DNA of 64,000 nt from IMG/VR virus record IMGVR_UViG_3300013288_000004, positions 127,360 through 191,359 of that record; one strand, 5' to 3'. Position 1 is the first letter of the stretch. Each line of letters begins with the position of its first letter. This stretch comes from a virus. Its lineage: Duplodnaviria; Heunggongvirae; Uroviricota; Caudoviricetes. A model generated the notes under the pieces. That model was not told the DNA's origin. It searched no databases and saw only the letters and a list, made by a program, of their open reading frames with translations. Below, one piece after another: positions 3,426 to 38,841 of this stretch. A program made the position numbers and the translations under genes.

Positions 3426-3881
3426 TTATTGCTTTTCATTCAGATTGTCCTCAAGTTCTTTAATGCGTTTGCGAAGCTCGCCGTTAATGACACTCATATT
3501 CTTTATATTATCACGTTCAAAATCGACAGTTCGCAATGCTTTCTTTAAATTTACATTATTGAAATCACAGGCGTCAGCAATGTTTGAATCGCGATTGTCC
3601 CATTCTATAAATAATTCACGCTTTTTGAGCCTTCTAGCCGCAAGAGCATCCTCACTAATCTGCCACTTTCTTGCTACAAAGTCAATAGCTGCAAGTACAT
3701 CACCCATCTCTTCAGTCATTCTGGTTATCATGGAACCTTTACCATCCGGGTGATCATCACTATCATAATATGCGATTTTCTTTGCGCATATCTGAACTAG
3801 TTCACCGCATTCTTCCATCAATTTTGTTAAACCATTTGCAGACATCATAAAGCCAATATTCCTGTATAATTTGGAGCCCAC
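3426..3881 (-). CDS. MazG-like nucleotide pyrophosphohydrolase
   Basis: 151 aa; LMEECGELVQ ... EEMGDVLAAIDF blocks typical of the MazG/NTP-PPase all-alpha family. Confidence 0.5.
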   Translation of the reverse strand: MGSKLYRNIGFMMSANGLTKLMEECGELVQICAKKIAYYDSDDHPDGKGSMITRMTEEMGDVLAAIDFVARKWQISEDALAARRLKKRELFIEWDNRDSNIADACDFNNVNLKKALRTVDFERDNIKNMSVINGELRKRIKELEDNLNEKQ

Positions 3882-3946
3882 TACGGGACTTGAACCCGCG
3901 CTCGCCGCTATACGCTATCGCTGCTCTTTCTCTGAGCTAAATGGGC
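3872..3946 (-). tRNA. tRNA-like sequence, possible pseudo-tRNA
   Basis: Reverse complement GCCCATT-TA-GCTC-AGAGAAA-GAGC...GCGGG-TTCAAGT-CCCGT-AGTGGGC-T-CCA has good acceptor, D- and T-arms plus CCA. Anticodon region (contains CGCTATACGCTATCG direct repeat) has no canonical stem. Same family as 1599-1670. Confidence 0.35.
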
Positions 3947-3962
3947 TTAATTCTTTTTCATA

Positions 3963-4034
3963 CACCCTGTGACGGTATCGAACCGTCCTCTTCCAGATCA
4001 ATATAGATATTCTAGCCGCTATTACTAACAGGGT
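3963..4034 (-). tRNA. tRNA-like sequence (acceptor ACCCTGT/ACAGGGT, perfect T-arm GACGG-TTCGATA-CCGTC; D and anticodon arms non-canonical)
   Basis: Folded by eye on the minus strand; no CCA; low confidence. Confidence 0.3.
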
Positions 4035-5709: not shown

Positions 5710-6948
5710 TCAGATGTCCAAAGGCGTAACTTCGGGACAAGCCATCCCTAGTTGTCTCATTCCTGAGACATAAATATTTTTGGCAGCATTCCAATCTCTG
5801 TCCATTTTATGACCACAATCCGTACAGCAGAAGATTCGATCACTCAATTTCAAGTCTGATTTATAGCTACCACAACTAGAACATGATTTGGAAGTCGGTG
5901 CCCATTTATCTATTACAACTAAATTGTTGTTATAAATCAATGACTTGTATTTGAGTTGGCGTCGGGCTTCGCCCACGCCACCATCAATTCCTGACTTCCC
6001 AAACATTTTGCTCCAGCTTTTCAAATTCAAATCTTCTATAATTATCGTTTGGTTTTCGCGACAGATTTGAGTTGTAAATTTGTGTGTGAAATCGTGACGT
6101 AAGTCACTGATTTCTTTATGTATTTTTGCTACTTTACATCTTTGTTTCTTTTTGTTTTGACTTCCATCTTTTCTCTTTGAACAAATTCTCTGATACCTTT
6201 TCAGCTTTTGAAGCTTGTTTTTCAATGGTTTTGGTGCATCGAAAGATGCGCCATTTTGATCAACCGCGAAAGTTTTGATGCCAAAATCAATTGCTATGGT
6301 GTTATCTGATGTTCTAGCTTTACCATAATCATTCATCTCTACCGCAATTGATATAAACCATTTATCAGCTTTTCGACTGACCACAGCAGACATGATCTTA
6401 CCTTCAAATCTCAATGTCTCTTCCAATTTAATTTTTCCAATTAGTGGAAGTTTAATCATATTATCAGTTATGTGAAATTGATCGTTTGAGACATAAAATG
6501 AATCGCGTTTGTACTTTTTCTTAAACTGCGGATACGCGGTTCGTTTGTCGAAGAAACCTTTGAAAGCACTTTGTAAATTTGTAAATGGTTGTTGATTTGC
6601 ATCTTTTGGTGAATCGTATATCCATGGAAATTCCTGCTTTTTAATGGAATTGAATTGCTTTTTCAATTTTAATGCTGACGGTTTCTCGCCTGCCATATAT
6701 TGCTTATTCCATTCGGCCAAAGCCCAATTGTAAGTGAATCTGGCGCAGCCTGCGGCTCGCGCCAGCATCTGCTTCTGTTCTTTGTTGGGTTTTAACTGAA
6801 TTTTGTGGGCAAGATTCACGGCGATTTTATTCGCTTTTTCTCTTAACTTTGGCGTCTTTCGGCACCAATATAGTGCGTGATGCCGTTTGGTATGCACCTT
6901 CGATGTAGCCAAGGTGGAACCAATTGTAAGCTGTTCTGTAACATACAC
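5710..6948 (-). CDS. tnpB: IS607/IS605-family TnpB (OrfB) RNA-guided endonuclease
   Basis: 412 aa; N-terminal LKPNKEQKQMLARAAGCARFTYNWAL; RuvC-I IAIDFGIKTFA, RuvC-II IIIEDLNLKSW, zinc finger CSSCGS...CCTDCGH, RuvC-III DRDWNAAKNI. All catalytic blocks intact. Confidence 0.85.
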   Translation of the reverse strand: MYVTEQLTIGSTLATSKVHTKRHHALYWCRKTPKLREKANKIAVNLAHKIQLKPNKEQKQMLARAAGCARFTYNWALAEWNKQYMAGEKPSALKLKKQFNSIKKQEFPWIYDSPKDANQQPFTNLQSAFKGFFDKRTAYPQFKKKYKRDSFYVSNDQFHITDNMIKLPLIGKIKLEETLRFEGKIMSAVVSRKADKWFISIAVEMNDYGKARTSDNTIAIDFGIKTFAVDQNGASFDAPKPLKNKLQKLKRYQRICSKRKDGSQNKKKQRCKVAKIHKEISDLRHDFTHKFTTQICRENQTIIIEDLNLKSWSKMFGKSGIDGGVGEARRQLKYKSLIYNNNLVVIDKWAPTSKSCSSCGSYKSDLKLSDRIFCCTDCGHKMDRDWNAAKNIYVSGMRQLGMACPEVTPLDI

Positions 6949-8490: not shown

Positions 8491-8712
8491 ATCTTATAGC
8501 CTATCCGAGATATTCACGATTTTGTAAAAATCGTAATACTTATTTTGTTGAGAGATATATTCTTGCGCATCAGCTTCATTATCGAATGAGGCTAAAAAAT
8601 TGTCAATATTTGGATAATATTGATCCCACCCCAACACCCAAAATAATTTCATGTCCTTCATCCCCTATGTTTAAGCTATCATAAGGGAATTGAGGTTAGA
8701 TGTCAATGATGA

Positions 8713-9105
8713 TCAATACGCCAACGCGGTGTCAGCTTGTTGCTGTGTCAATAGACCAACACTGACGAGGTATGCAATACCATTGATTGCATCTGGCGAT
8801 CCTAATCTCACGGTCTGTCGGGCGCGAAGCGTGACCAACATTTCTGCGATGATAGGGTCGTTCGGTGCCGCTGCTGTTATCGCGGCGAATCGCTCCGCGC
8901 CAATACGTTCAACAAACTCAAATACTGAAATTTGATCAACCTTCGCTGAGTCAGCCCATGATTCAGCTACACGTTCGATTGCATTTTGTACATATTCCTG
9001 TACAGATTGGTACGGTGAATCTCCATCTTCAGGGATTGTCATCATATAAGCCGCATTTGCGCCAGCTATGTGTCTGTTATTTGTTAAAGTAACCGTAATT
9101 GTCAT
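8713..9105 (-). CDS. hypothetical tail-fibre-associated protein (GC-rich island)
   Basis: 130 aa; GC-rich codon usage unlike flanking DNA; last gene of the fibre-proximal module. Confidence 0.5.
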   Translation of the reverse strand: MTITVTLTNNRHIAGANAAYMMTIPEDGDSPYQSVQEYVQNAIERVAESWADSAKVDQISVFEFVERIGAERFAAITAAAPNDPIIAEMLVTLRARQTVRLGSPDAINGIAYLVSVGLLTQQQADTALAY

Positions 9106-9165
9106 TTTTATTCCTATTTAGTTTATAAAGGTATTTATCAATTCAAGGCGACCAACCTAATCATA

Positions 9166-9672
9166 TCACACTGCTCTGGCTTTAGCGGCATGAAACAAGT
9201 CATCAACTTGTTCCTGAGTTAATCCAAGGGCGATTCTTCCCGACTCAATAAAATCAGAATCGCGACGTATCGTTGATCTGTGTTGCCAATAGATTTGTTC
9301 CACCGGAGAAAGCGTATCTACATAACCCTGCACAGAGGGAAGTAGATTGAGATCATGTAATGTCAATTTGAATGCTATAGTGTCCACTTCCTCTGGCACG
9401 GCAAGTTCTTCGACAACCCATGTCTGGGTCCATCTGCCATTTATTAGGGCATCTGGTCCATTGCTCAATTGTTCATCAGGTCCAAATTCTGGAGGGTCTA
9501 CTTCCAAAACATATTGATAGCCTACCGCCGCTAACTGCTCATCGGTTGGGGGATTATCCCAGACTGTGCGGATGCCTTGCGCGGGATTTGCTACTGATCC
9601 GATACGTGGAAACGTTCGAAGTAATTGTTGCAGCGTAGTTCTACCGCCAGTTATTGTGTTTACTATTTTCAT
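9166..9672 (-). CDS. hypothetical protein (GC-rich island; possible tail-fibre assembly/accessory protein)
   Basis: 168 aa; GC-rich; ATGA overlap with the upstream gene. Confidence 0.5.
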   Translation of the reverse strand: MKIVNTITGGRTTLQQLLRTFPRIGSVANPAQGIRTVWDNPPTDEQLAAVGYQYVLEVDPPEFGPDEQLSNGPDALINGRWTQTWVVEELAVPEEVDTIAFKLTLHDLNLLPSVQGYVDTLSPVEQIYWQHRSTIRRDSDFIESGRIALGLTQEQVDDLFHAAKARAV

Positions 9673-10421
9673 ACTAACTCCGTGTGTCTTCGTTGTCTTG
9701 CGTTTAGAAAATTGATTACTTCAGGATTGACTATTTGATTGATGACACCAGCGCCTCGCCAGATTCGCAAAGCTGCAAGATTTGCGTCAAGATAAGAGCC
9801 GGGGGTTACGGATGTCGATCCGATCCTGACGTCAGATGAGCTACCGGCTCGTGCGCCTCCAACTAAAGTGGTTGTCACAGCCGCATCCGTGCCGATTTTC
9901 ACTCCAATTACATCTGCATTTGGATCGTGCCAACATAACACAGGAATCCATTCACTCATCGGTACATTAGCAGAAACCGATACAGCGCCATCAGCAGCGA
10001 CAGATCTCCCAACAGTAAAGATCAAAGTCGACAAAGAAAAGTAAATAATGAATGCTCTTGCGGTAGCAGTAGCGACCACAGTACTCGGTGATTTGGCAAA
10101 AATGATGCGGGCGCCAGTTGCGTTTCGCTTGGCCCAAAAGTGCATGGCCCATTCATTATCTAAAATATTTACATTTGATGTTCCTGAACTTGGCAGATAG
10201 AGATGCTCCGAGTTATCTGGTGTAAACAAGCGTGACCCGTATCCGGGCGTTGCTCCGGCGGCGGATTCCACTGTATTCACATCAATGAAATCATACTCAC
10301 TAATACTTTGATCAATAGCGTCCCCACTAACCTCTTCAAGATCAAGTGAAAGAACTAAATTAGATGATAGGTCCAAGCTACCATTAGACCGTTGTAAGAA
10401 CCTGCCGCCGCGTTTAATCAC
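9669..10421 (-). CDS. hypothetical phage tail protein (GC-rich island)
   Basis: 250 aa; Gly/Ser/Thr/Ala-rich beta-type composition typical of fibre/baseplate-distal proteins. Confidence 0.5.
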   Translation of the reverse strand: MIKRGGRFLQRSNGSLDLSSNLVLSLDLEEVSGDAIDQSISEYDFIDVNTVESAAGATPGYGSRLFTPDNSEHLYLPSSGTSNVNILDNEWAMHFWAKRNATGARIIFAKSPSTVVATATARAFIIYFSLSTLIFTVGRSVAADGAVSVSANVPMSEWIPVLCWHDPNADVIGVKIGTDAAVTTTLVGGARAGSSSDVRIGSTSVTPGSYLDANLAALRIWRGAGVINQIVNPEVINFLNARQRRHTELV

Positions 10422-10777
10422 GCTGTACTTCCTCCAATGATCACGGAGTTTGTTCCATCACATTCCCACCATAGGAATGATGGGTCAGCAGCACTTCCTG
10501 TGTGTCCAGTAGACGCAGCATCAGGGGTTATGACCATTGATCCCGTCACTGACCAAGTGATGACCCCAGCTCCAACGGCTCGCATAATCAAGCCGCCCAT
10601 TCCAGCGGTTAAAGTGTCAGGAAATATAGCGCTGTTCGCTCCAGCATCCGTAAACCTTACGCACTTGTTTACATCACTTGGGCCAAAAGTGTGAGAGTTG
10701 GTAGACGTTGGTTCTTTATAAGTCTGCCTTGCGACAAAAGAACCTTCGACTTCAAACTCATCCGTAGTAATTTTCAT
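10418..10777 (-). CDS. hypothetical phage tail protein (GC-rich island)
   Basis: 119 aa; overlapping stop/start with neighbours. Confidence 0.5.
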   Translation of the reverse strand: MKITTDEFEVEGSFVARQTYKEPTSTNSHTFGPSDVNKCVRFTDAGANSAIFPDTLTAGMGGLIMRAVGAGVITWSVTGSMVITPDAASTGHTGSAADPSFLWWECDGTNSVIIGGSTA

Positions 10778-10808
10778 GTGTGTATATCCCTATTAGTCTA
10801 ATTGATAT

Positions 10809-12596
10809 TTATGCTGCTTGAATCAGTTCGACTCGACCAACCCAATAAGTTGTCGTTGCGTTGGCAGGAGTTACTTGGATTACGATTGCACCCGCACCCG
10901 CACCCGTTGCCGGTACTACATTGATCGTTGGTGTGCCTAAAGCAGCATCTAAACCCTTGGTAGTAACCGTGTTAGTGCCAACGATTATTGCATTGCCGCT
11001 AGCTCCCCGGCGTGCAGTACCTTCGATCTTCCACGATCCAGCAGCGGCGCCAGACGCATGCACCGCAACAACCCGCGCTTCGAAATCTGCGCCAGAGTTA
11101 ATTGGCAACACCATCACATTCGTGGCGGATTCGGCGCCACCGTCCGCCGTGAGCGTTGTTGCGGATGCTGCGCTGGTCGTAATGCGGACTGGCTGTACTA
11201 TAACCTGCGCGTCGCCTAATGCCGCACGCTGACCAGCACTATACGCGCCTGCGCCATATAGCAGGCGCGTAGTGGCCGTCGATCCTCCGGGAATCCACGA
11301 CAGCGGACCAGATGCCAAGTTTGCATACCCACCACCAACAGCAGAAGTTTGTCCTCCTGCTATGTTTGTATTACCGCCAGCGACGACAGAAGTTGAACCT
11401 GAGGCAGTGTTTCTGAATCCCCCTGCGCATGTCGCCCATGCGCCGGAAGCGACCTGCGTAGCGAGAGTGCGAGTGCTTGTCTGCCAATCAACTGCATTCG
11501 TCCCGCGCGCATTACCACCCGCCGTGGTGCTATCCGGAACCTGCGCAGACAAAGCGCCTGTACCCGCAGGAGTCAGTGCGACGTTGATGTTAGCGGTGCC
11601 AGTACCCGCACTCTGCGCAGCGATCTGCATCCAACCGGATGTGGCGCCGGGAATGAGTGCCAAACGCTCGTAGTTGCTGGCATCGGTATAGGTATTGTAA
11701 ATGCGGGAAGTTTGGGTGGTAACACCACTACGTTGCGCAAGTATCCCAGCGGCATCCCTGAAAAGAGCTGTGCCCGTGCTGAAAGATAGAGACGCACTAG
11801 CGCTTACTACATTTATATCCGTAGTAGATATACTGATCATGCGCGTCCCGGAGCCGCTCCACATAGTGAGCGTACCTCCGTAGTTGCCGATGCCAGCAAC
11901 ACCGGGATCTTGCACTCCGGGTGACGTAGGAAATACGATAGCCCCGCGCCTCAGTATGCGGACAAAATCTGATCCATCCACACTAAATGTAGCGAACCTG
12001 CTCAGCACATCGCTAGCGGTATTCGTCACGTTGAGTTTGATGCCCTCAAACGTAACCGCAGCGTTATTCCAAGTCTGCGCAAGATTAAGAACAGGGTTAC
12101 TAGCAGTAAGGACACCGCCGCCTAGCGCTACAGTCTTGTTAGTCGTGTTGTAAGTAAACCCTGAGTCGCCGGCAAGTGCGCCAGCGTTGTTGAACTGAAT
12201 CTGTGTGTCTGCGCCACCCGCTGTTGCTGGGAAGGTAGCGGGCTTGTCTGTTATATCATCCCAGCCTACTGCGCCAGCATCGCCTGCTGAAAATTTATCG
12301 TATTCAATTCCTATATCAATGTCAAAAGCAGTAATATCTGGGCGAAGTATTTTATATTCACCCGGATATGATATTGTTAATGAGTATGCACTACCACTCA
12401 TAGCTACGACACCATTTAAGTAAAATGATTCGTAAATATCGAGAACATTTTTTCTTTTAACTCTAAAAAGAGGAATATCCTTCGGAATGTTCACAGTAGG
12501 ACTGAAAATGGTTAATTGTAACACTTCGTTCTCGCCAACAATGATTGACGATGTTAGTGTTTTAGTCCTTCCAGCGGTTAATAGAACAGTTGACAT
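10809..12596 (-). CDS. tail fibre protein (mosaic: AT-rich N-terminus, GC-rich C-terminal receptor-binding region)
   Basis: 595 aa; long Gly/Ala/Thr/Ser/Asn-rich fibre-like repeats (GGADTQIQFNNAGALAGDSGFTYN, NTASGSTSVVAGGNTNIAGGQTS). First ~100 codons are AT-rich like the host genome, the remainder ~60% GC. TATAAATA-like element 23 nt upstream. Confidence 0.7.
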   Translation of the reverse strand: MSTVLLTAGRTKTLTSSIIVGENEVLQLTIFSPTVNIPKDIPLFRVKRKNVLDIYESFYLNGVVAMSGSAYSLTISYPGEYKILRPDITAFDIDIGIEYDKFSAGDAGAVGWDDITDKPATFPATAGGADTQIQFNNAGALAGDSGFTYNTTNKTVALGGGVLTASNPVLNLAQTWNNAAVTFEGIKLNVTNTASDVLSRFATFSVDGSDFVRILRRGAIVFPTSPGVQDPGVAGIGNYGGTLTMWSGSGTRMISISTTDINVVSASASLSFSTGTALFRDAAGILAQRSGVTTQTSRIYNTYTDASNYERLALIPGATSGWMQIAAQSAGTGTANINVALTPAGTGALSAQVPDSTTAGGNARGTNAVDWQTSTRTLATQVASGAWATCAGGFRNTASGSTSVVAGGNTNIAGGQTSAVGGGYANLASGPLSWIPGGSTATTRLLYGAGAYSAGQRAALGDAQVIVQPVRITTSAASATTLTADGGAESATNVMVLPINSGADFEARVVAVHASGAAAGSWKIEGTARRGASGNAIIVGTNTVTTKGLDAALGTPTINVVPATGAGAGAIVIQVTPANATTTYWVGRVELIQAA

Positions 12597-12618
12597 AAAT
12601 TATCCATGATATTTTGTA

Positions 12619-12871: not shown

Positions 12872-13151
12872 TAATACCGAAGAACCCTCGGAAACAACAA
12901 ATGAATCAGAATATGCAGAAGTTTGGCCTAACGAAAGAATGCTTGTAGTAATGATTATATCCCCTTATGAATAACATATATGGATATTTATATATTTTCA
13001 TATTCCGAATTATCTTCTTGTTTATGAATCAATAATAATTCATATTCTTCAAGAGAATCTCTGTATTTTTCTAGGGCAGTTTTTTCTCTATACTCTAATA
13101 CGGAGCCAGTGCAATAGTAGCACATGCAACGACGACTAAATCTACGTGTTT

Positions 13152-13427
13152 TCATTTTTCTTCCACGTCAGTTGGTGGTAATTCCATCCATGCGATTGGT
13201 TTACAATTATTTGATCTAGTTGTGACATGCCCACCTACAATATATCCATTCCAGAATCCACTGCCCGGATGATGTTCTTCGAAGATACCATTAAAATATC
13301 CTATACCTACTTGTTTACAATTATATCGGTTATCACTATGATTAGTGAATTGCCATAAAATAAGAATATCTCTGTCCTTGGGAGCAGTATCCATAGATTG
13401 CCACGGTGGGAATTGGCTATAGTTCAT
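13152..13427 (-). CDS. DUF551-family phage protein
   Basis: 91 aa; W.SMDTAPKDRDILILW motif characteristic of the DUF551 C-terminal domain. Confidence 0.55.
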   Translation of the reverse strand: MNYSQFPPWQSMDTAPKDRDILILWQFTNHSDNRYNCKQVGIGYFNGIFEEHHPGSGFWNGYIVGGHVTTRSNNCKPIAWMELPPTDVEEK

Positions 13428-13428
13428 A

Positions 13429-13641
13429 TTATCTCTTCAATGTACTGGAAATTTGTTCATAATCTAATCTTGGTTCAACTTTAGTTAGATCATAGAACAC
13501 TTTTAATTTAGCATCAGTGTCTATATTAGACATACCTTCAAAAAGATATGCCATTTGTTCTTTAAGACCATAAGTTAATTCTTTATGACCCATAATAGCC
13601 GAAGAATATTCGACCATTTGTTCTTGGAATGATGTAACCAT
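13429..13641 (-). CDS. hypothetical protein
   Basis: 70-aa ORF directly downstream. Confidence 0.45.
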   Translation of the reverse strand: MVTSFQEQMVEYSSAIMGHKELTYGLKEQMAYLFEGMSNIDTDAKLKVFYDLTKVEPRLDYEQISSTLKR

Positions 13642-13658
13642 GATATTCCTTAAAATTG

Positions 13659-13783
13659 AGGACCATGTTGGAATCGAACCAACCTAATGCTGCTTACTTT
13701 TGGTGATTTCAGATTTGAACTGATCAGAGCCTAAAACTCTTACACCCACAGGCAGCCGTAATACCCAGACATACCAATGATCC
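13659..13783 (-). tRNA. putative tRNA-His(GTG) interrupted by a ~51-nt intervening sequence at the canonical 37/38 anticodon-loop position
   Basis: Minus strand: GGATCAT-TG-GTA-(D loop with GG)-TAC-G-GCTGC-CTGTGG-[51 nt]-A-GCAGC-ATTAG-GTTGG-TTCGATT-CCAAC-ATGGTCC-T. Acceptor and anticodon stems pair only if the 51 nt are removed. Folded by eye. Confidence 0.4.
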
Positions 13784-13799
13784 ATATAATATTATTTTG

Positions 13800-13897
13800 C
13801 AGACCGGCAGGGACTTGAACCCCGATCATCAGTTTTCCTAAATATTCTTTTACAAAAACATTTAGGAGACTGGTATGCTGCCATTGCACCACCGATC
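13800..13897 (-). tRNA. tRNA-like sequence with ~30-nt palindromic insert (CCTAAAT...ATTTAGG); anticodon uncertain
   Basis: Acceptor GATCGGT/GCCGGTC (2 GU), T-arm CGGGG-TTCAAGT-CCCTG; length ~98 nt. Confidence 0.3.
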
Positions 13898-14004
13898 TAT
13901 ATTACTTTATTTATTCCATTCTACAGTAGCATTTTTTGCAAAACCTGTAAATGGCATCTTTATGCAAACGCTTTTAATTCACGTTCTCTAGCTATTCTTT
14001 CCAT

Positions 14005-14055
14005 TTCTTCTAATTCTTCTAATTCTTCTAATTCTTCTAATTCTTCTAATTCTTT
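14005..14055. repeat. hexanucleotide tandem repeat (TTCTAA)n, ~8 units
   Basis: Direct inspection; minus strand would encode a small (ELE)n peptide. Confidence 0.8.
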
Positions 14056-14094
14056 AGCTGAGACAACAATTATTTCCATAATTTTATTTAATTT

Positions 14095-14170
14095 TGGCGA
14101 GGACAGATGGATTCGAACCACCATTTCACAATTTTAACATCATGCGTAATTCCAAATGTGGTGAATGCAT
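14095..14170 (-). tRNA. tRNA-like 3' portion (T-arm GGTGG-TTCGAAT-CCATC, acceptor 3' strand TGTCCTC, encoded GCCA); 5' half not identifiable
   Basis: Complementary 5' acceptor strand GAGGACA not found within 300 nt. Confidence 0.3.
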
Positions 14171-14304
14171 TCTACTCACGCGTTATACGACATCCCCATT
14201 TCTTGTATCATACACAACTTATTTAGTGTTGTCAGCTATGTTTGATTTCAGTGTTTTGAACTATTTTATGTTCACGTTGATAAATACTTAAAAAGGATAA
14301 CAAA

Positions 14305-15114
14305 ATGATTAAAACATGTTTATACTGTAGTAAAGAGTTTACCACAAATGACTCAAGAAGTAAATTCTGTAATCAATCGTGTGCCGCTTCATATAATAAC
14401 AGTAGAAGAAAACATAGTGAAGAAACAAAACGAAAAATGTCTGAAAACCATAAACTAAGCAGATCACTTAAAATAATAACATGCATAATCTGTAACGCGC
14501 AATATCAACATCGGCGATATAGAAAAACGTGTTCTGATGAATGTTACCATAAAGCAAGATCACAATTGACAATCAATTATTGGAAAAACGGATTATATGA
14601 TGGTGTAAAAATGGGAGGCGTTCGTCTAGGCTCTACCAGAGGTAAGTCTGGAAAATACCAAGGCATATATTGCGATTCTACTTATGAATTAGCTTTTGTA
14701 ATATACAACTTAGATCACGGTAATAATATTGAAAGATATGGAAAATATTTCGACTATTATGACCCTGATCGCAATGACCACTTCAAATTTTTTCCCGACT
14801 TTTTAGTCAATGGTAAAATCATAGAAATAAAGAATTATTTTAGAAATATAGACACTTACAAATTATCAGGAACAAACGGTTTGGTGACCATAAAATATAA
14901 ACAAGATTTACAAGAGATATTTGAATATGTTGAAAACAAGACTGGATTACACCGAAACAGATTTTTTGAATTATATGATGATGTCGTAATTGAATTTAAG
15001 GGATGTGCTAATTGTGGTACAGAGTTTAAAGTTACTTCTGACCGTAAGAAATTTTGTTCTCAAAAATGTGGCGGGCAGTATGCGGGAAATCATAATAGAT
15101 TCTGTAAATCTTAA
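14305..15114 (+). CDS. putative homing endonuclease-like protein with N- and C-terminal CxxC zinc-finger motifs
   Basis: 269 aa; N-terminal CLYCSKEF...FCNQSCAASYNNSRR shared with the HNH endonucleases at 21791-22423; C-terminal CANCGTEF...FCSQKCG; lies between tRNA genes on the opposite strand. Confidence 0.5.
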   Translation: MIKTCLYCSKEFTTNDSRSKFCNQSCAASYNNSRRKHSEETKRKMSENHKLSRSLKIITCIICNAQYQHRRYRKTCSDECYHKARSQLTINYWKNGLYDGVKMGGVRLGSTRGKSGKYQGIYCDSTYELAFVIYNLDHGNNIERYGKYFDYYDPDRNDHFKFFPDFLVNGKIIEIKNYFRNIDTYKLSGTNGLVTIKYKQDLQEIFEYVENKTGLHRNRFFELYDDVVIEFKGCANCGTEFKVTSDRKKFCSQKCGGQYAGNHNRFCKS

Positions 15115-15121
15115 AGAAGAA

Positions 15122-15198
15122 TGGCGGGGTTAAACGGATTCGAACCGATATTTCATTCATCGACAGTGAATTTTCTTCGCCAGTTAGAAGATAACCCC
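15122..15198 (-). tRNA. tRNA-Asp(GTC)
   Basis: GGGGTTA-TC-TTCT-AACTGGCGA-AGAA-A-ATTCA-CTGTCGA-TGAAT-GAAAT-ATCGG-TTCGAAT-CCGTT-TAACCCC-G-CCA; clean cloverleaf, anticodon GTC. Confidence 0.75.
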
Positions 15199-15486
15199 GC
15201 AGTTCCTTAATTTTTATTACCTATATCTTGTATATATGCTATTACATCATCACAAATTCTACAATAGCCTGTTAAATTTTTGAGCAGGACTTCTCAAATC
15301 CTTCGCGGACTTCGACATCCACATAGTTGCTCAAGCTATGGCATCTATTCAGTAAGTGCCTCTTACCTGCTGGGTGGTTTAGAGCATGACCAGTCGCATG
15401 CTATCCATTTCACCTTATGGACAAGGACCGGTGTGAGATCACCGAATTTCTAAGTTGTGCTATCATAACTGATGCACCAACTCTTG

Positions 15487-16443
15487 TCAACACTTTATCG
15501 ATATGTACTTACTGTACCTTAAACATGCAAACTCTTCCTCGTCAAGGTCATAGTCAAATCCACCATGGATGCTCATATAATTGTTACCAGATGTCAGGTT
15601 CTTATATCTAACATAACCGATAGTATTAGTAAAATTCTCAAGTTTTAGTGGCTTTTTCTGCACAATTAGAAAATGAGTAATCCAACCATCTACTTCTAAT
15701 TGACTACCAGAACCAACGTTCTTTTGTGTAAAAATATCCTTCCAAAAGGAAATTCTATCCGCCTCACTGGCTTCAAATGAGTTAACTATATTGTCTAGAA
15801 TTATTTTAACTCTTACTGGATAGTTCTTAAAATTATAGCACTTGCCAAGCAATTCAAAAAGCTTATCAAAGTTCGTGCGAATATTTTTCCAATCGTCTAC
15901 GGTGCCTAGCACTTTTATCTCTGGCAGACCACACATAAACATTGAGTACGAATAATACGGTGACGCCATTTCACAAAATAAAGCCTGAATCATTCCAACA
16001 GATTCTTCGCTCTCAATTGATAATTCTGGAAAGAGGATAGACGCATCAAAATTAATGCTCTTCGATAAAGCCTCTGATAATAAATCCATCGGCATCTCAT
16101 ATTCGCTATTCGTTGGAACTAGAATTTCTTTCTTTTCAGTGGAATCGGTAAACAGTTCCCTAAATGGTTCCGGCTTATCTACAATAAATTTGGACACTTC
16201 ACTAATAATCAGAATCCAAATATCATATGGTGAGATAGATACATTCACATGATTCGAATAAGCGTGACTCAAAAATCCCAAGAGTCCCGCGTTACGCAAT
16301 TTGGTCTGGGGAAATTCATAAAAGAATTGATATTTTTCATCAGGTTTCAATACCTTAGTCATATTTGACCGAATAATATCTCCTAACGGATATTCTCGTA
16401 TATTCTCAGATTTAGTCAGTTTATCATTTAAAATTAATTTCAT
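15487..16443 (-). CDS. hypothetical protein
   Basis: 318-aa ORF, no motif recognised. Confidence 0.55.
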   Translation of the reverse strand: MKLILNDKLTKSENIREYPLGDIIRSNMTKVLKPDEKYQFFYEFPQTKLRNAGLLGFLSHAYSNHVNVSISPYDIWILIISEVSKFIVDKPEPFRELFTDSTEKKEILVPTNSEYEMPMDLLSEALSKSINFDASILFPELSIESEESVGMIQALFCEMASPYYSYSMFMCGLPEIKVLGTVDDWKNIRTNFDKLFELLGKCYNFKNYPVRVKIILDNIVNSFEASEADRISFWKDIFTQKNVGSGSQLEVDGWITHFLIVQKKPLKLENFTNTIGYVRYKNLTSGNNYMSIHGGFDYDLDEEEFACLRYSKYISIKC

Positions 16444-19618: not shown

Positions 19619-20848
19619 TCAATGCCAATAATGACATAACTTAGGTTTTGTGTCAAGTGAAATTTTCACTGACAAGGGCCAACTACATGCCTCTATCGGA
19701 TCAATTTTTACATCTCCGACTGCTTTTCTCATAATATTATATGCGCCATTGACATCTGCATTTATTTCTAAATCAAGACATTTGTCTTTATAAATTCCTC
19801 TGGTTTTTCTATATCCAGAAAATTTCATGTCATCCGTCTTCTCTCCATATGTCGGAATCATATCATTACTCAAACATGATGCCTTTGATGTATAGCTCTC
19901 TTCCTGACAAATGACATTAATTCCTCTTGATTCGGCTTTATATGTCAACATTTGTTTCAATTTATTGAATGGCACTGACACAAAATTTTGATTATTTTTC
20001 TTTCCGATGTTTATCTCTTGTTTCCAACCTTTATTTTCACCGATTATTAAGGTGTTTATTTGGTTGAAATCTAATTGATTAATAAGCCACGTACTTGCTT
20101 TATGTAAATAATCACGAATTTTGTCATTTCTTTTTCTAGAAATGGCGTTGATTCTATTACTTGTCTTTCTTTTGTCTCCTAATTTTGATTGTAGTTCTGC
20201 TTTTCTTTTATTATAATATTGGTTTATAGCTTTCAATGGTTTTCCATTTATTAAAAATGGTTTCATGACATTTGACGCTGTTGCTACTAAATTACTTAAA
20301 CCGATATCAACGGACAAATAACGACTATTGTCACTTCTTTTGTCTTCTATATCTGTCAAATATATCACTTCTATATCAAAATGATTGCTTCTCGGAACAA
20401 CTCTAACCTGTTGTATATCTGTTTTTTCTGTCTTTATAAAGATGTCATAACCAGATAATTTTACATATCCAGGTTTAACGAAAGATAATGCCTGATTAGT
20501 GAAAATTGTCACATATTTACCTGATTTGTCTAGGTAATTTGGTATACGTACCTTGTCATTTTTCTTTGCTTTCAACAAAGCAAAGAATGATCTAAAATTT
20601 TGATCAACCAATTTTAAGGTCTGTTGTGACACTTTTCTAGGTAATTGCTGGTAATCTATATTAGTTTTTGCGAAATCACCAGCTAATTTTGAATAGCCGA
20701 TGTATGTTTTTGTGGAGAAAAAATGCTGACGAATGGCATACAAAGATGCATTATACAAGTTTTTGGACTTGTGAGTCAGATCACACAAGTCACTAAAATA
20801 ATGACTTGTGCGACATATGGCATGCTTTTCTACACGTCTAGCTTTCAT
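19619..20848 (-). CDS. tnpB: IS607-family TnpB (OrfB) RNA-guided endonuclease
   Basis: 409 aa; RuvC-I LSVDIGLSNL, RuvC-II LIIGENKGW, RuvC-III INADVNGAYNI; zinc-finger cysteines reduced (only 2 Cys); 4-nt overlap with tnpA. Confidence 0.85.
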   Translation of the reverse strand: MKARRVEKHAICRTSHYFSDLCDLTHKSKNLYNASLYAIRQHFFSTKTYIGYSKLAGDFAKTNIDYQQLPRKVSQQTLKLVDQNFRSFFALLKAKKNDKVRIPNYLDKSGKYVTIFTNQALSFVKPGYVKLSGYDIFIKTEKTDIQQVRVVPRSNHFDIEVIYLTDIEDKRSDNSRYLSVDIGLSNLVATASNVMKPFLINGKPLKAINQYYNKRKAELQSKLGDKRKTSNRINAISRKRNDKIRDYLHKASTWLINQLDFNQINTLIIGENKGWKQEINIGKKNNQNFVSVPFNKLKQMLTYKAESRGINVICQEESYTSKASCLSNDMIPTYGEKTDDMKFSGYRKTRGIYKDKCLDLEINADVNGAYNIMRKAVGDVKIDPIEACSWPLSVKISLDTKPKLCHYWH

Positions 20849-21488: not shown

Positions 21489-21794
21489 TCAATAAAGATT
21501 CATAATACCAGCAGATTTCAGCAAGTCAACGCCTTCTTTTTCTGATAGTGGCGGCAACCCACCAATAGACTCAAATTCGGAATTATCATTTTTAATCGCT
21601 TGAATTTGTTTACGAATATATCTCATAAACAATATAGCTTTATCTTCATCCAAGAAAGTCCCGTCACCAGTATCACTAATAGGCACTGGAAACATGAAGC
21701 CACATTCAGTTTTATAAAACAATTCACCATGCTTATAGTAACAAAACTTCACTCTCTTATTATCTTTAACTATGTCTTTAATATTGTAATTCAT
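21489..21794 (-). CDS. hypothetical protein
   Basis: 101-aa ORF. Confidence 0.45.
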   Translation of the reverse strand: MNYNIKDIVKDNKRVKFCYYKHGELFYKTECGFMFPVPISDTGDGTFLDEDKAILFMRYIRKQIQAIKNDNSEFESIGGLPPLSEKEGVDLLKSAGIMNLY

Positions 21795-22423
21795 GAATCT
21801 ATCCCTCTGGTTATTTCTAATCCACTATTTTCTAGTAGTCTTTTTGCTCTACCATAATTGTCACCCTTTGGTGACATGTTTAAATTTAACAAACCATGGC
21901 GTATACTGCCAGCGTTTACTATGCTATTAATAAGTTCGTTATCACTTATTTTCGCCTTTCTTGTGTTTCTTCCTCGCCATGTCGGAGTTAATGAATGACA
22001 ATTAGGACATAATCCCTCTAGATTATCTCTAGAATTATTCTTATTATTTCCGTCAATATGGTCAATCTCTAATGAGATTGGAGATCCCATCCACTCAAAA
22101 ATACCACAAGAATTACATTTATTTTCTTGTTCTTTTATGACCCTAACCCGCTTTACATCAAAACATACAGAGTCAAATGGTTTTTCATTAATTTTCTTTT
22201 CGAGAGTTTCTTTTATTTTCTTAATTCTAGTTGGTGTATGTATTTTTGATATTCTCTCTACCCTTTCCAAATCTGATAAATTTCTCCAAAATATCTTGTT
22301 CTGGTCTGCTTTTTTAATTTTGGCTTCATCAGTAAAGACCCTAGTATTTCTACATGCTAGAGAACAATAATTTATTAACCCCTTGGATGGTATAAAATCT
22401 ACTTCACATTTTTTACATTTCAT
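21791..22423 (-). CDS. HNH homing endonuclease
   Basis: 210 aa; N-terminal CKKCEVDF...CSLACRN zinc ribbon; HNH core LEIDHIDGNNKNNSRDNLEGLCPNCHSLT. Confidence 0.8.
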   Translation of the reverse strand: MKCKKCEVDFIPSKGLINYCSLACRNTRVFTDEAKIKKADQNKIFWRNLSDLERVERISKIHTPTRIKKIKETLEKKINEKPFDSVCFDVKRVRVIKEQENKCNSCGIFEWMGSPISLEIDHIDGNNKNNSRDNLEGLCPNCHSLTPTWRGRNTRKAKISDNELINSIVNAGSIRHGLLNLNMSPKGDNYGRAKRLLENSGLEITRGIDS

Positions 22424-23243: not shown

Positions 23244-23680
23244 TTTGGATTTCCCATATATGTTTTAAGTAGTTTAAGAGTTCTTGTGACAAAGTTCATC
23301 GACTTAGGGCAACCATCATACCAATCCTTAACCACATCTGTCAAACCATCAATTAGAATTTTTTCTTTTGAAACGCCAGATTCTGACTCTATCTTCATAT
23401 TTTGTTGTAAAAGTTTTAGCAATGCTATGTCAGCCTCGTATGTTTCTTTAAGAGCCTGCTTCAATTCTTCGCCAATATCTTTGGCTATGATCAAATCCAT
23501 CTTCATCTCAAGCTTGCGTAAAATTGAATCACTTATTATCAAATCATGTAAATTATCCTCGGCATAACCAGAAGGATAAAGATCAGAACGATATGATGGG
23601 GGGACTTGATCGTCAGGGATTTCTATAATTATGCGCATGGTGGGTTTTTGGTTATGGAGGTTGTAAAGGCATGTTCGCAC
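23237..23680 (-). CDS. hypothetical protein
   Basis: 147-aa ORF. Confidence 0.45.
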   Translation of the reverse strand: MRTCLYNLHNQKPTMRIIIEIPDDQVPPSYRSDLYPSGYAEDNLHDLIISDSILRKLEMKMDLIIAKDIGEELKQALKETYEADIALLKLLQQNMKIESESGVSKEKILIDGLTDVVKDWYDGCPKSMNFVTRTLKLLKTYMGNPKC

Positions 23681-24469
23681 AAAAAAGGAATAATGTCAAC
23701 GAACTCGTATAAATACTTAAAAAGGAGAGTTCGAATGCCAAAACCAAGAACGTCAGTAATATGGTTAATACCTAGAGAAGATTTACAAAACATGATAGAC
23801 ACAAGTAGTTCTATCGTAGAAGTTTTAGAGAAGTTAGGATTTAATGGTTACAACGGGAACCATAGGACACTGACACGGAGGATCAGTGTGGAGTCAATTA
23901 ATACCGAACAAATGAAATTAAACTATAAAGAATATAGAAAAGCACGCATAGATTGTACTCATAATATACACAATGTTTTTGTTACTGGTTCTAAGACGAG
24001 TAGAAAAACAATTAAAAAGATACTAACAGAAAATAATCTATTAGCTTACAAATGTTCTGAATGTGATAATAATGGAAGTCATAATGGCAAACCATTAATC
24101 TTGCAATTAGAGCACATTAATGGGATTAATGATGACAATAGATTAGAAAATTTATGTTTTCTTTGTCCTAACTGTCACAGCCAAACTACTACATTTTCTG
24201 GTCGAAATTCCAAACGTCCGAAGAATGACAAGCGGAAGAGCTATGAATCAGCAGAGAAAAAGGCCATCAGGACTCAAAATATGAGAAAGTTTAACGTCAC
24301 TAAAGAGGAATTGACAGAATTGATCATAAACCATTCAATGGTGTCTTTGGGTGAGAAGTTTGGTGTCAGTGACACGGCAATTAAGAAAAGATGTAAGCGG
24401 TTGGGGATAGATTTAGATTTGAGAAAATATAAAAAATTGGAGCGGGCGATGGGAATCGAACCCACCTAA
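23606..24469 (+). CDS. HNH homing endonuclease (3' end of ORF runs into tRNA-Gly; true stop may be earlier by frameshift or read-through)
   Basis: 287 aa; LEHINGINDDNRLENLCFLCPNCHSQT HNH core; C-terminal region with HTH-like VSLGEKFGVSDTAIKKRCKRLG. Confidence 0.7.
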   Translation: MIVRDFYNYAHGGFLVMEVVKACSHKKGIMSTNSYKYLKRRVRMPKPRTSVIWLIPREDLQNMIDTSSSIVEVLEKLGFNGYNGNHRTLTRRISVESINTEQMKLNYKEYRKARIDCTHNIHNVFVTGSKTSRKTIKKILTENNLLAYKCSECDNNGSHNGKPLILQLEHINGINDDNRLENLCFLCPNCHSQTTTFSGRNSKRPKNDKRKSYESAEKKAIRTQNMRKFNVTKEELTELIINHSMVSLGEKFGVSDTAIKKRCKRLGIDLDLRKYKKLERAMGIEPT

Positions 24470-24720: not shown

Positions 24721-25470
24721 ATGAATTATATATCAAAAGAAGATTTACAAGAGGCGATCAATGCCAGTACATCAAAAGCCGAGTGTTTTAATTTTCTAGG
24801 TTTACACACTACTAGCAATTACTCTTATAAGTCATTAAATTATTATATAAAGTTATATGATTTAAATATAGATAAGTTTACAAATAATAAAATAGGGAAA
24901 AATAACATTAAAATAAATCTAAAAGATATATTGGATGGGAAATATCCATCATACACAACATCTAAACTAAGAGTGCGATTAATTAAAGAGAATATATTCT
25001 CTCATCAATGCTCTATATGTTCATTAACTGAATGGAACGATAAACCAATACCATTGGATTTAGATCATATAAATGGAGATCCAACAGACCATCGACTAGA
25101 AAATATAAGATTATTATGTAGGAATTGTCACGCACAGACTAGTAACTTCTGCGGAGCAAATGTCAAAAAGAGATCAGTTAAGATAAAACCAGAAAGACCT
25201 AAAAAGATAAAACCCGAAATAATCCGAAAAGAAATATACAATTATAGGACGGGAGAACTAACAACAAAAATAAAAGATGATATGGAAATAATTAAAAACT
25301 GTGATATTGATTTTACAAAATATGGATGGGTGACAAAATTAGCCACATTACTTGGTAAGAAACCTCAGAAAATCAATAGATGGATGAAGAAATATATGCC
25401 AGAAATTTTAGAAAAATCATTTCAAAAATCTAATAATTTGGCAGCGGTAGATGGAATCGGACCACCATAG
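24721..25470 (+). CDS. HNH homing endonuclease (3' end overlaps tRNA-Gln)
   Basis: 249 aa; LDLDHINGDPTDHRLENIRLLCRNCHAQT HNH core. Confidence 0.7.
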   Translation: MNYISKEDLQEAINASTSKAECFNFLGLHTTSNYSYKSLNYYIKLYDLNIDKFTNNKIGKNNIKINLKDILDGKYPSYTTSKLRVRLIKENIFSHQCSICSLTEWNDKPIPLDLDHINGDPTDHRLENIRLLCRNCHAQTSNFCGANVKKRSVKIKPERPKKIKPEIIRKEIYNYRTGELTTKIKDDMEIIKNCDIDFTKYGWVTKLATLLGKKPQKINRWMKKYMPEILEKSFQKSNNLAAVDGIGPP

Positions 25471-25664: not shown

Positions 25665-25737
25665 CGGGCATGATAGGAGTCGAACCCACAGCCGAATGAT
25701 TCGTATTCATTCCATCGTCCATCGAAAGTGCATACCC
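25665..25737 (-). tRNA. tRNA-Arg(ACG), 5' region atypical
   Basis: Acceptor GGGTATG/CATGCCC, anticodon arm AATGA-ATACGAA-TCATT, T-arm GTGGG-TTCGACT-CCTAT; D-arm spacing irregular. Confidence 0.5.
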
Positions 25738-37815: not shown

Positions 37816-38841
37816 ATGCATTGGGTACTACAGGAAAATTTGTTTAACGAACAAGGATTTAGGGACGCTCTGGACGTTTTTGAAAGGTTTAAGATACCAT
37901 ATTCTTTACATAAGGTTGTGCCGTTTGTTGGTGAGCTAGAGCCTGACATTAGTCCAGATGACAATGTGATCTGCATGGGTTCTTACTCTATGCGCCACAT
38001 TGCTAAGAAGAAGGGTTGGTATCCCGGTGTGTTCGATCTAGAACCAGTTAATTTTAATGAACAAATGAAGCATTGGGGAAAGCACATGCTCAATGCTGAT
38101 GCTGTTGTGTCAAGATTTGCTGATGCTAAGATTGTAACAGGAAAAGCATTCCTACGTCCAATTGAAGATTCCAAAGTATTTGCTGGAAAAGTATTTACAG
38201 ATCAAGAACTTACAGAATGGCAGCATAGTATCATTACTATGGGAGATGACTATGGTTCTTCTATGAATGGTGACACACTGATACAAGTATGCCCGGTCAA
38301 GGAAATCTACGCAGAGTATAGATACTGGGTTGTGGACGATAAAATCGTAACCAAGTCCATGTATAAGCGTGGTGGGACGGTTCATTACTCCAGTGACGTT
38401 GATCATCGATTTGATAAGTTTGTGTCATCACTAACTTCTGGACCGTTTTCAGTAGATTATTGGCGACCGCATGATGCATACGTGATAGACGTTTGTGACA
38501 CACCAGATGGTATCAAGGTGGTCGAATTGAATACACTCACAAGCGCGGGGTTCTATGCGGCCAATATGACAGACCTAATCATGGCACTAGAAGATAAGTT
38601 TAGTAGAAAAGAACCTAGAAAAGATATTGGCGGTATTATTACTTATAAAGTGCAACGCAGTATGGATAAAGGATTCTTTTATTGTCCATATAACCCATTT
38701 GTGCCAGTTGTAGAAAAGTTACCAGAACCTGAGCCTCCAACTCAAGAGATGATAACTATGTGGATTGATGGTGTTAAAAACAATGATCCACAGAAAGATG
38801 CTTATATAGAATTGTTGAAAAAACTCCCACCATTCAGTTAA
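37816..38841 (+). CDS. ATP-grasp domain protein
   Basis: 341 aa; FLRPIEDSKVFAGKVF, EYRYWVVDDKIV, VIDVCDTPDGIKVVELNTLTSAGFY blocks typical of ATP-grasp ligases. Confidence 0.6.
   Translation: MHWVLQENLFNEQGFRDALDVFERFKIPYSLHKVVPFVGELEPDISPDDNVICMGSYSMRHIAKKKGWYPGVFDLEPVNFNEQMKHWGKHMLNADAVVSRFADAKIVTGKAFLRPIEDSKVFAGKVFTDQELTEWQHSIITMGDDYGSSMNGDTLIQVCPVKEIYAEYRYWVVDDKIVTKSMYKRGGTVHYSSDVDHRFDKFVSSLTSGPFSVDYWRPHDAYVIDVCDTPDGIKVVELNTLTSAGFYAANMTDLIMALEDKFSRKEPRKDIGGIITYKVQRSMDKGFFYCPYNPFVPVVEKLPEPEPPTQEMITMWIDGVKNNDPQKDAYIELLKKLPPFS

Follow-up and report, generated by a model that had tools for sequence, protein, structure and literature searches.

Introduction

Introns in the tRNA genes of bacteria and phages are classically self-splicing group I elements (rarely group II), and short introns that are spliced by proteins belong to archaea and eukaryotes. 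Here, we describe two neighboring tRNA genes of an uncultured jumbo phage, units A and B, whose anticodon loops are interrupted by inserts of 51 and 28 nt, respectively. Both units lie in a 64,000-nt stretch of the IMG/VR virus record IMGVR_UViG_3300013288_000004, which we call the window and from whose first letter all positions are counted unless another contig is named. A first-pass annotation, made from the letters of the window alone, had proposed that tRNA genes in this region are interrupted in the anticodon loop by unusually short inserts, and comparison with intron-less orthologs from related phages bears this out.

The closest described elements are the introns found by Devoto et al. 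(2019) in tRNAs of Lak megaphages, which that report calls 'enigmatic' and presents as the first of their kind, phage tRNA introns having gone unreported until then (PMC6784885). Introns of 79-114 nt listed there interrupt Tyr, Phe, and Thr tRNAs, with another reported in a Gly tRNA; those in Table S6 contain T-arm-like hairpins, such as AAUUGGUUCGAAUCCAAUU, and one intron 'may itself encode a tRNA' (PMC6784885). A jumbo-phage survey from 2026 noted intronic sequences in tRNAs again (PMC13037316). The literature thus records short, non-ribozyme inserts in the tRNAs of huge phages twice and leaves them unexplained. Searching full-text articles, we found no proposed mechanism for short inserts in phage tRNAs.

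Two other kinds of RNA processing are useful points of reference. The intervening sequences of bacterial 23S rRNA are excised by RNase III, and the resulting fragments are not rejoined. Phage T4 Pnk and Rnl1 seal breaks in anticodon loops, an activity that repairs damage by host nucleases and is not splicing. Finally, a 2026 study described group I introns of 184-894 nt at position 35/36 of tRNA-Asn(GUU), and also in tRNA-Asp, of Patescibacteria, and showed experimentally that they splice themselves (PMC13011429).

Results

Two tRNA genes with short inserts in the anticodon loop

The phage from which both units derive has a genome of more than 300 kb, with near-identical contigs reaching 306 kb. 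Proteins encoded in the window are closest to those of the Xanthomonas and Stenotrophomonas jumbo phages XacN1, Xoo-sp13, CM1, and RAS14 (36-40% identity), and the lineage appears to be distantly XacN1-like, with an apparently standard genetic code. The 591 bp spanning the two units are 100% identical across six independently assembled metagenome contigs (JGI, ENA), which excludes an assembly artifact. For comparison, we collected related tRNA clusters by searching with DNA patterns and with the adjoining DUF4419 gene, conserved in relatives at 69-91% identity. Related contigs are labeled L0xx; L031 is IMGVR_UViG_3300034065_000062, a different phage contig, and L027 is Xanthomonas phage XacN1, AP018399.1 35001-85000.

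Unit A forms all four tRNA stems: its acceptor stem has 7 bp (GGAUCAU/AUGGUCC) and its anticodon stem 5 bp (GCUGC/GCAGC), and a D arm and a T arm (the latter GUUGG-UUCGAUU-CCAAC) are also present. The strands of its anticodon stem are separated by 58 nt where a 7-nt loop is expected, leaving 51 nt extra. The first-pass annotation had recognized the four stems and the 51 additional nucleotides, which hold up on the minus strand, but it took the gene for a tRNA-His(GTG) and placed the insert at the canonical position 37/38, and the related phages contradict it on both counts. The body of unit A occurs without an insert in L016 (11872-11948, GGGTCATTGGTATGTCTGGGTATTACGGCTTC-CTGTTAA-GAAGC...), where it is a plain tRNA-Asn(GUU) with the loop CUGUUAA, and with an insert in L013, which differs by four compensatory stem changes. 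A second, unrelated Asn body (body 4, with discriminator G73) carries an insert of the same family in L001, L014, and L016 but none in L010, where the loop is again CUGUUAA; the interrupted gene scores 50-51 bits with the Rfam tRNA model. Alignment with the intron-less orthologs opened one clean gap of 50-51 nt, at CUGU/UAA, in both Asn bodies. Thus, unit A is a tRNA-Asn(GUU) with its insert between U35 and U36. The histidine identity was rejected both because the intron-less ortholog is an Asn gene and because the gene, with U at position -1 and U73 as its discriminator, does not encode the G-1:C73 pair of typical bacterial tRNA-His.

Unit B has 35 nt in place of the 7-nt anticodon loop. It aligns with the intron-less tRNA-Trp(CCA) genes found at the corresponding cluster position in L001, L013, and L016, with a single 28-nt gap at CUCC|AAA, and because no base is repeated at the junction, the insertion point C35|A36 is unique. 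A second unit with an insert in its anticodon region had been part of the first-pass annotation and is confirmed at 13898..13800; the length given there, 30 nt, has to be corrected to 28 nt, as the outer CC belongs to the anticodon. The Rfam tRNA model matches unit B with 44.6 bits (gathering threshold 29; E=3e-6 over the whole window), placing 30 nt in the insertion state. All copies of the Trp gene have G73, most have A1-U72, and position 20 is C, not A. By the rules of tRNA identity, such residues fit Trp rather than Arg(CCU), as ArgRS needs A20. We rejected tRNA-Arg(CCU) on these residues, the unique insertion point, and the homology to intron-less tRNA-Trp.

Neither unit was called by ARAGORN with default settings. 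Both were called with its intron search, a check suggested in the first-pass annotation, and unit A was returned as Asn(gtt) with a 51-nt intron. Removing the inserts in silico left canonical 7-nt loops, for which ARAGORN called Asn(gtt) and Trp(cca). The spliced genes have four stems that are kept by covariation, a 7-nt loop with U33 and a purine at position 37, and a T loop of the form UUCRANY. The predicted spliced junctions are GGCTGCCTGT-TAAGCAGC for Asn (CUGU-UAA) and CCAGTCTCC-AAAACTGA for Trp (CUCC-AAA). We consider it very probable that these tRNA-Asn and tRNA-Trp genes are split at position 35/36 by members of two structured insert families.

Structures of the two insert families

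Family A, to which the insert of unit A belongs, comprises eight distinct sequences of 50-51 nt in three tRNA-Asn bodies, namely that of unit A, body 4, and a body with a long variable arm. The idea that this long-arm carrier is a converted Tyr or Ser tRNA was discarded, as XacN1 has an uninterrupted 89-nt long-arm tRNA-Asn(GUU). The proposed fold consists of the anticodon stem, a helix between exon residues C32-U35 and the insert tail A(A)AG, a helix P1, a D-like hairpin with a loop ending in AGG, a GA linker, and a T-loop hairpin, UCAG-UUCRAAU-CUGA. This last element is the T-arm-like hairpin that the first-pass annotation had pointed out within the 51-nt insert, and it is indeed present, at 13723..13709, and invariant in relatives. 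The 20 proposed pairs are formed in 140/140 cells across seven distinct sequences, compared to 29-46% when the partners are slid by 1-3 columns. Compensatory pairs are found in P1 (two; GGUG/CACC versus GAAG/CUUC) and in the D-like hairpin (two; AGAG/CUCU versus AACG/CGUU), and the covariation score is 0.529, versus 0.193 in shuffles, with the compensatory changes corresponding to roughly one evolutionary split between two subtypes and hence to few independent events. This pattern of substitution indicates that the structure is under selection. With a hairpin loop ending in GG beside a T-loop hairpin, the three-way junction of family A may correspond to the elbow of a tRNA lacking its anticodon arm.

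A covariance model of family A, R1, matched only tRNA-Asn anticodon loops over 206 kb (the window plus relatives). It found a single copy in the window, where a pattern search for the family also gave no second copy. Every tRNA cluster seen except that of L018 holds at least one copy of family A. Readings of the insert as a hammerhead, twister, pistol, or other ribozyme were rejected, as there was no Rfam match at E<=10 and a likeness to the motif CUGA...GAAA comes without the essential core bases.

Family B, represented by the insert of unit B, is 28 nt long in all four sequence variants, that of L031 among them. Its terminal GG pairs with C35 and C34 of the anticodon, and the helix thus crosses the 5' splice site. 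All pairs of this 13-bp helix are formed in the four sequences (100%), two of them with compensatory changes, and this pairing and the constant length indicate that the structure of family B is under selection as well. The perfect palindrome noted in the first-pass annotation is confined to the 7-nt arms, CCTAAAT/ATTTAGG; the inner stem pairs as RNA through G-U.

Other tRNA-like genes in the relatives carry inserts as well. A tRNA with a long variable arm and A73 (L001 517-626; L011 3454-3566; L013 1335-1447) has a 26-nt hairpin resembling family B. If cut at 35/36, its anticodon would be CUA (L001) or UUA (L011, L013), that of an amber or ochre suppressor; if cut with the geometry of family B, it would be CUU or UUU, that of a tRNA-Lys. 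A third insert, of approximately 73-76 nt, lies in the anticodon loop of another tRNA-like gene (stem CUUGA/UCAAG) in L014 (8401-8550) and L015, with a 3' part in L010, at approximately 1040-1100. Four of the six RNA genes in the L014 cluster carry an insert. L031 combines a Trp-like tRNA bearing a family B insert (c2050-2151), an intact tRNA-Trp (c1600-1673), and a tRNA with an insert of approximately 55 nt (c2976-3103).

Constraint on the exons and patchy distribution of the inserts

An insert interrupts the tRNA-Trp gene of the window, L010, L011, L014, L018, and L031, the gene being intact in L001, L013, and L016, and the two Asn bodies described above are likewise interrupted in some phages and intact in others. 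In four interrupted Trp genes, the 21 pairs of the cloverleaf are formed in 98.8% of cells, and 10 pairs show compensatory changes. Four compensatory pairs, and no change that disrupts pairing, are seen in the body of unit A. In the long-arm Asn body there are likewise four, and the entire stem of its variable arm is swapped, AGAU/AUCU for GUGC/GCAC. The loop residues that flank the inserts (CUGU/UAA and CUCC/AAA) are invariant. These patterns indicate that the interrupted genes remain under constraint as tRNAs. That they hold the cloverleaf through many compensatory changes disfavors pseudogenes, one of the options raised in the first-pass annotation.

The inserts are more conserved than the genes that carry them. 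Between Asn bodies that share only 58-65% identity in their exons, the family A inserts are 90-94% identical, and family B inserts are 100% identical where the exons are 86% identical. Because they outconserve their exons, occur only in tRNA loops, and are patchily present and absent, the inserts appear to behave as site-specific mobile or gene-converting introns, and not as decaying pseudogenes or dispersed transposons. The miniature insertion element considered in the first-pass annotation was therefore an apt guess in part, the inserts showing mobile or gene-converting behavior but being restricted to one tRNA site. Miniature transposable elements proper (MITE, or the IS200/IS605-derived PATE) were rejected, with family A found only in tRNA-Asn anticodon loops and no target duplication at the junctions.

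Wider scans added few relatives. Exact-pattern scans of IMG/VR, for the 3' exon of unit A and for the core of family A, returned just one related contig, and one metagenome scan returned one true relative (L010) and one chance match within an aldehyde dehydrogenase gene (L009). With a relaxed pattern, IMG/VR yielded the additional relative L023, and GTDB genomes yielded only chance matches (a true tRNA-Val T arm and unrelated stretches without a tRNA). Using BLAST to compare the 4-kb region and the two units with GenBank phages gave nothing meaningful.

Table 1. Coordinates of the interrupted tRNA genes, their inserts, and neighboring features in the window
Feature	Position	Strand	Description and basis
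Unit A, tRNA-Asn(GUU)	13659..13783	(-)	G1=13783, discriminator U73=13659; ARAGORN intron search, orthologs
Unit A 5' exon, nt 1-35	13748..13783	(-)	ends C32 U33 G34 U35 at 13751..13748; alignment with intron-less genes
Family A insert, 51 nt	13697..13747	(-)	GGGUGUAAGAGUUUUAGGCUCUGAUCAGUUCAAAUCUGAAAUCACCAAAAG; covariance model R1, 90.8 bits
Family A P1	13746..13743 paired with 13705..13702	(-)	4-bp helix; proposed fold
Family A D-like hairpin	13740..13726	(-)	loop ending AGG; proposed fold
Family A T-loop hairpin	13723..13709	(-)	UCAG-UUCAAAU-CUGA; invariant in all relatives
Family A 3' tail	13701..13697	(-)	AAAAG; pairs with exon nt 32-35
Unit A 3' exon	13659..13696	(-)	starts U36 A37 A38 at 13696..13694; alignment with intron-less genes
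Unit B, tRNA-Trp(CCA)	13800..13898	(-)	A1=13898, discriminator G73=13800; A1-U72; Rfam and alignment
Unit B 5' exon, nt 1-35	13865..13898	(-)	ends C32 U33 C34 C35 at 13868..13865; alignment
Family B insert, 28 nt	13837..13864	(-)	UAAAUGUUUUUGUAAAAGAAUAUUUAGG; hairpin capped by GUAA tetraloop; minimum free energy fold, z=-4.9
Unit B 3' exon	13800..13836	(-)	starts A36 A37 A38 at 13836..13834; alignment
Unit C, tRNA-like RNA of ~103 nt	14095..14197	(-)	homologs in 8 relatives; consensus fold, 12 covarying pairs
Sigma-70-like promoter	14207..14235	(-)	CTGACA-17-TATGAT, 10/12 matches; directly upstream of unit C
HNH/NUMOD-like endonuclease, free-standing	14305..15114	(+)	PHROG 1271, E=6e-15; weak NUMOD3 match; within tRNA cluster
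tRNA-Asp(GUC), uninterrupted, first gene of the cluster	15122..15198	(-)	ARAGORN and Rfam, 54.4 bits

The surrounding cluster and other features of the window

The genes of the tRNA cluster are all on the minus strand (Table 1). Beside units A and B, the cluster encodes unit C, which has an acceptor stem, a T arm, an encoded CCA, a covarying D stem, and a D-loop hairpin of approximately 31 nt with the conserved loop AUGCAUU; it has no Rfam match at E<=10. The anticodon-like loop of this RNA, of 7-8 nt, varies freely among the eight relatives, and unit C therefore probably does not decode. The promoter-like sequence upstream of it is conserved in L001, there with a perfect TTGACA, and is the likely start of a transcript running through units C, B, and A. 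A 39-codon open reading frame (ORF; 13960-14079 (-)) lying between units B and C contains five 9-nt tandem repeats (ELEELEELEE...) and is annotated by gene callers in related contigs. The proteins adjoining the units gave no functional clue: ORFs of 70 and 91 aa are unmatched, and one of 318 aa is the DUF4419 protein.

The window has five HNH-like ORFs, the one listed in Table 1 and those at 21791-22423 (-), 23606-24469 (+), 24721-25470 (+), and 44367-45611 (-). The ORFs at 14305, 21791, 23606, and 24721 directly adjoin tRNA genes, and in L001 a different ORF occupies the slot beside tRNA-Asp. This arrangement suggests homing-endonuclease traffic around the tRNA genes, and it is plausible that the inserts have spread with the help of HNH enzymes, or that they protect genes from them.

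More generally, the window, with a G+C content of 35%, is rich in small ORFs and in homing-endonuclease-like genes, and encodes two TnpB proteins and one intein. The TnpB (IS605 OrfB) genes, at 5710-6948 (-) and 19619-20848 (-), and the intein, within an AAA-ATPase gene at 45673-48303 (+), are further signs of heavy colonization by mobile elements. A block at approximately 8700-12600, with a G+C content of 42-52% and Gly/Ala/Thr-rich, tail-fiber-like ORFs of 595, 250, 168, and 130 aa, looks like a recent acquisition; its presence in all of the near-identical contigs shows that it is not a chimera. ARAGORN detects eight RNA genes in the window. One is a permuted, two-piece tmRNA gene (61396-61752 (-); Rfam 103 and 98 bits) with the tag peptide ASNDEFFDVEYAQAA. 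Default ARAGORN rejects three further tRNA-shaped elements, at 3875-3946 (-), 3963-4034 (-), and 25665-25737 (-), despite their good acceptor and T arms. The first of them lacks an anticodon stem, although Rfam scores it at 40.6 bits; this element and the second recur unchanged in L001.

In XacN1, genes for an RNA ligase and a tRNA-His guanylyltransferase adjoin the tRNA cluster. A permuted tmRNA (Rfam 123 bits) and a GOLLD RNA (227 bits, record 38570-38983) are located in a gap of this genome that is without annotation (record positions 36.6-39.0 kb). The tRNAs of XacN1 also include long-variable-arm species for Asn, Gly, Thr, and Cys, along with two CUA suppressors. Two 'intron' calls by ARAGORN in XacN1 were not taken as interrupted tRNAs, as one (2067-2214) overlaps the 5' end of the tmRNA match and the other (2615-2728) is directly downstream.

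Discussion

How the inserts might be removed

We propose that units A and B are working-type tRNA genes, each split at position 35/36 by a short, ORF-less, structured insert, and that both families are spread or kept among the tRNA genes of this jumbo-phage clade by homing or gene conversion at the DNA level, probably with the involvement of the free-standing HNH endonucleases whose genes lie next to them. As each insert breaks the anticodon, a mature tRNA would need its exact excision from the RNA. We infer from the constraint on the exons that such splicing occurs, and the likely agents would be proteins, an endonuclease followed by an RNA ligase. For the explanation as a whole, including splicing to working tRNAs, we estimate a probability of about 0.5.

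For family B, the geometry points to a possible route. RNase III-type cuts placed 2 bp apart across the continuous helix would free an 11-bp hairpin with a 2-nt 3' overhang. The predicted sites, as read from the sequence, are after C35 and after the terminal G that pairs with C34, giving a 2-nt stagger. A hairpin with ends of this form is characteristic of RNase III products. Cleaved in this way, the anticodon loop would carry 3'-OH and 5'-phosphate termini, the kind that ATP-dependent RNA ligases join, and a ligase of the phage or its host could seal them; XacN1 encodes a ligase of this type. We regard a route of RNase III-type cleavage followed by ligation as rather unlikely. In family A, the 5' site (U|G) and the distance between the 3' site and P1 are qualitatively reminiscent of the ends of a tRNA-like substrate. 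Taking these ideas further, phages could possess an undescribed, protein-dependent form of tRNA splicing in which mini-introns at 35/36 would be recognized by shape, those of family A as mimics of a tRNA elbow and those of family B as hairpins of a measured 28 nt, and cut out by tRNA-processing or RNase III-type enzymes, a ligase rejoining the halves and the inserts shielding the tRNA genes from the flanking homing endonucleases; we consider this somewhat unlikely.

A number of observations weigh against splicing to working tRNAs. We know of no bacterial or phage pathway that removes short, non-group-I introns from tRNAs. The splice sites of family A lie four positions apart, with mismatches, and do not share the 2-nt stagger of family B, so no single simple nuclease rule can serve both families. 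Genes for RNase III, EndA, RtcB, Rnl, and PNK were not found in the 64-kb window, a weak negative for a genome of more than 300 kb; the Pfam domain scan covered 20 window ORFs of >=200 aa. Similarly, a motif scan of IMG/VR for an XacN1-type ligase did not return the contigs of the relatives, again a weak negative. Both window genes are one C short of an encoded CCA, with UCA after the discriminator of unit A and GCA after that of unit B. The covariance-model check suggested in the first-pass annotation gave a divided answer: unit B is above the Rfam threshold, but unit A, with its insert, has no match to the tRNA model at E<=10, and the intron-less L016 ortholog of its body is also below the tRNA threshold, its best match being tRNA-Sec at 19.1 bits. 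ARAGORN accepts both of these, unit A with intron search. Finally, an uninterrupted Asn or Trp paralog is often present in the same genome (L016, L010, L031), and interrupted copies could be dispensable where intact paralogs exist.

Some of these observations would follow naturally if the inserts were never removed. The interrupted genes would then be copies inactivated by insertion, or else scaffolds of tRNA shape on which the insert is presented, acting, for instance, as decoys that draw anticodon nucleases of the host or as carriers for some small functional RNA, and intact paralogs or host tRNAs would do the decoding. The intact Asn and Trp genes found beside interrupted ones, the incomplete CCA of the window copies, and the failure to find splicing machinery in scans of the window ORFs all fit this account. 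So does unit C, a conserved tRNA-like RNA, probably non-decoding, whose presence indicates that such RNAs exist in the cluster, and the retention of family A in every cluster but L018 would fit a function of the insert itself. An insert that stays in place, however, would not by itself call for invariance of CUGU/UAA and CUCC/AAA, the residues that would rebuild the anticodon loop, nor for the finding that exact excision restores canonical loops identical to those of intron-less orthologs. Stems and the Trp identity set have also been kept through compensatory changes, as in decoding tRNAs that are aminoacylated, although a scaffold would need its stems as well. We judge permanent retention of the inserts to be somewhat unlikely.

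If proteins do not remove the inserts, RNA might. The inserts could be miniaturized derivatives of group I introns, spliced by their own ribozyme core or one supplied in trans. Family A occupies the very site of the Patescibacteria introns, tRNA-Asn(GUU) 35/36, where the exon also ends in U and the intron in G (PMC13011429), and one of those introns likewise ends ...UAAAAG|UAA; all family A inserts and all Trp family B inserts end in G. Nonetheless, we found no Rfam match to a group I intron or any other ribozyme at E<=10 in 13000-15500 and no group I intron at the gathering threshold in the window, and a P3-P9 core would not fit into inserts of 28 and 51 nt, the group I introns of bacterial tRNAs being 184-894 nt long (PMC13011429). 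Inspection revealed no GCAG-type guide complementary to CUGU near the 5' end of family A, whose exon pairs instead with the 3' tail of the intron, and the base that precedes family B is C35, not U. Group I derivation is very unlikely, and the degraded group I intron of the first-pass annotation is not supported as a working ribozyme, as neither a P1 nor an internal guide was recognized.

Archaeal-type bulge-helix-bulge (BHB) introns, removed by a phage EndA-like endonuclease and RtcB, are barely credible. In their favor, the splice sites of family A are separated by a helix of four positions, formed by exon residues 32-35 and the tail of the intron, and the unpaired U36 A37 A38 beside the anticodon stem is loosely BHB-like. 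The BHB-like intron of the first-pass annotation would, however, have its splice sites within two 3-nt bulges 4 bp apart, and instead the 5' site of family A faces a 1x1 G-A mismatch and its 3' site borders the unpaired triplet, the helix of family B is continuous with no bulge at the 5' site, the inserts are at 35/36 and not 37/38, and no tRNA-intron endonuclease domain (EndA/Sen) was found among the 20 window ORFs compared with Pfam.

If, as we propose, the inserts are spliced, bacteria and their viruses would have a so far undescribed route of RNA processing, and the inserts might serve phage tRNAs as a timing switch or as an anti-endonuclease device. If splicing does not take place, phages keep tRNA-shaped RNAs that bear conserved, structured modules. 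The locus offers exact junctions, two defined insert families, one of them with a mini-tRNA-like fold backed by covariation, selection on exons, and testable predictions of junction reads and cut ends.

Comparison with known systems

The protein-removed introns of archaea and eukaryotes (EndA/Sen; RtcB or Trl1) resemble the present inserts in being short, ORF-less, and positioned within the anticodon loop, with part of the anticodon paired to the intron, and protein removal may be common to both. The present inserts differ in lacking the BHB motif, in their position at 35/36, and in belonging to a bacteriophage, and scans of the window ORFs revealed no homolog of the endonuclease. The intervening sequences of 23S rRNA are also short helical extensions of a loop that a staggered double-strand cut can remove, a geometry that family B matches and family A does not fit; unlike those rRNA fragments, a tRNA cut in its anticodon would have to be religated. 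The T4 enzymes can seal such a break, and RNA ligases are also encoded by jumbo phages, including XacN1, whose RNA ligase gene is by the tRNA cluster, but none was located here in the window and the IMG/VR motif scan.

The Patescibacteria introns share with family A the host gene, tRNA-Asn(GUU), the site at 35/36, the preceding U35, and the terminal G. Some of them carry HNH endonucleases, and ARAGORN can misassign the anticodon there too (PMC13011429). They are set apart by their group I core, as family A, at 50-51 nt, has no recognizable group I element.

The Lak introns remain the closest parallel. They too are non-group-I inserts in the anticodon loops of huge-phage tRNAs without a match in Rfam, they too are near-identical across diverged genomes with a presence that varies among related phages, and there too the true site is offset from the 37/38 predicted by software. 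The traits of the Lak type (less than approximately 120 nt, non-group-I, sporadic, and highly conserved where present) are all seen in both of our families, the Lak class having no formal definition. Their T-arm-like hairpins parallel the T-loop/D-loop fold of family A, which contains a tRNA-like element (invariant T loop, AGG loop, covarying P1); family B is a simple hairpin and contains nothing that resembles a tRNA. The Lak phages, however, are alternatively coded Prevotella phages of approximately 540 kb, whereas the present inserts belong to an unrelated lineage, measure 28 and 50-51 nt, and interrupt Asn and Trp tRNAs at 35/36. Compared by eye and without alignment, one Tyr and one Phe intron of Lak phages showed no sequence similarity to the present inserts. 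Beyond what has been reported for Lak phages, we document covariation in the fold and spread from paralog to paralog. What is new at this locus is thus a set of shorter inserts in another phage lineage, with defined junctions, in one family a fold supported by covariation, and evidence of spread between paralogous genes.

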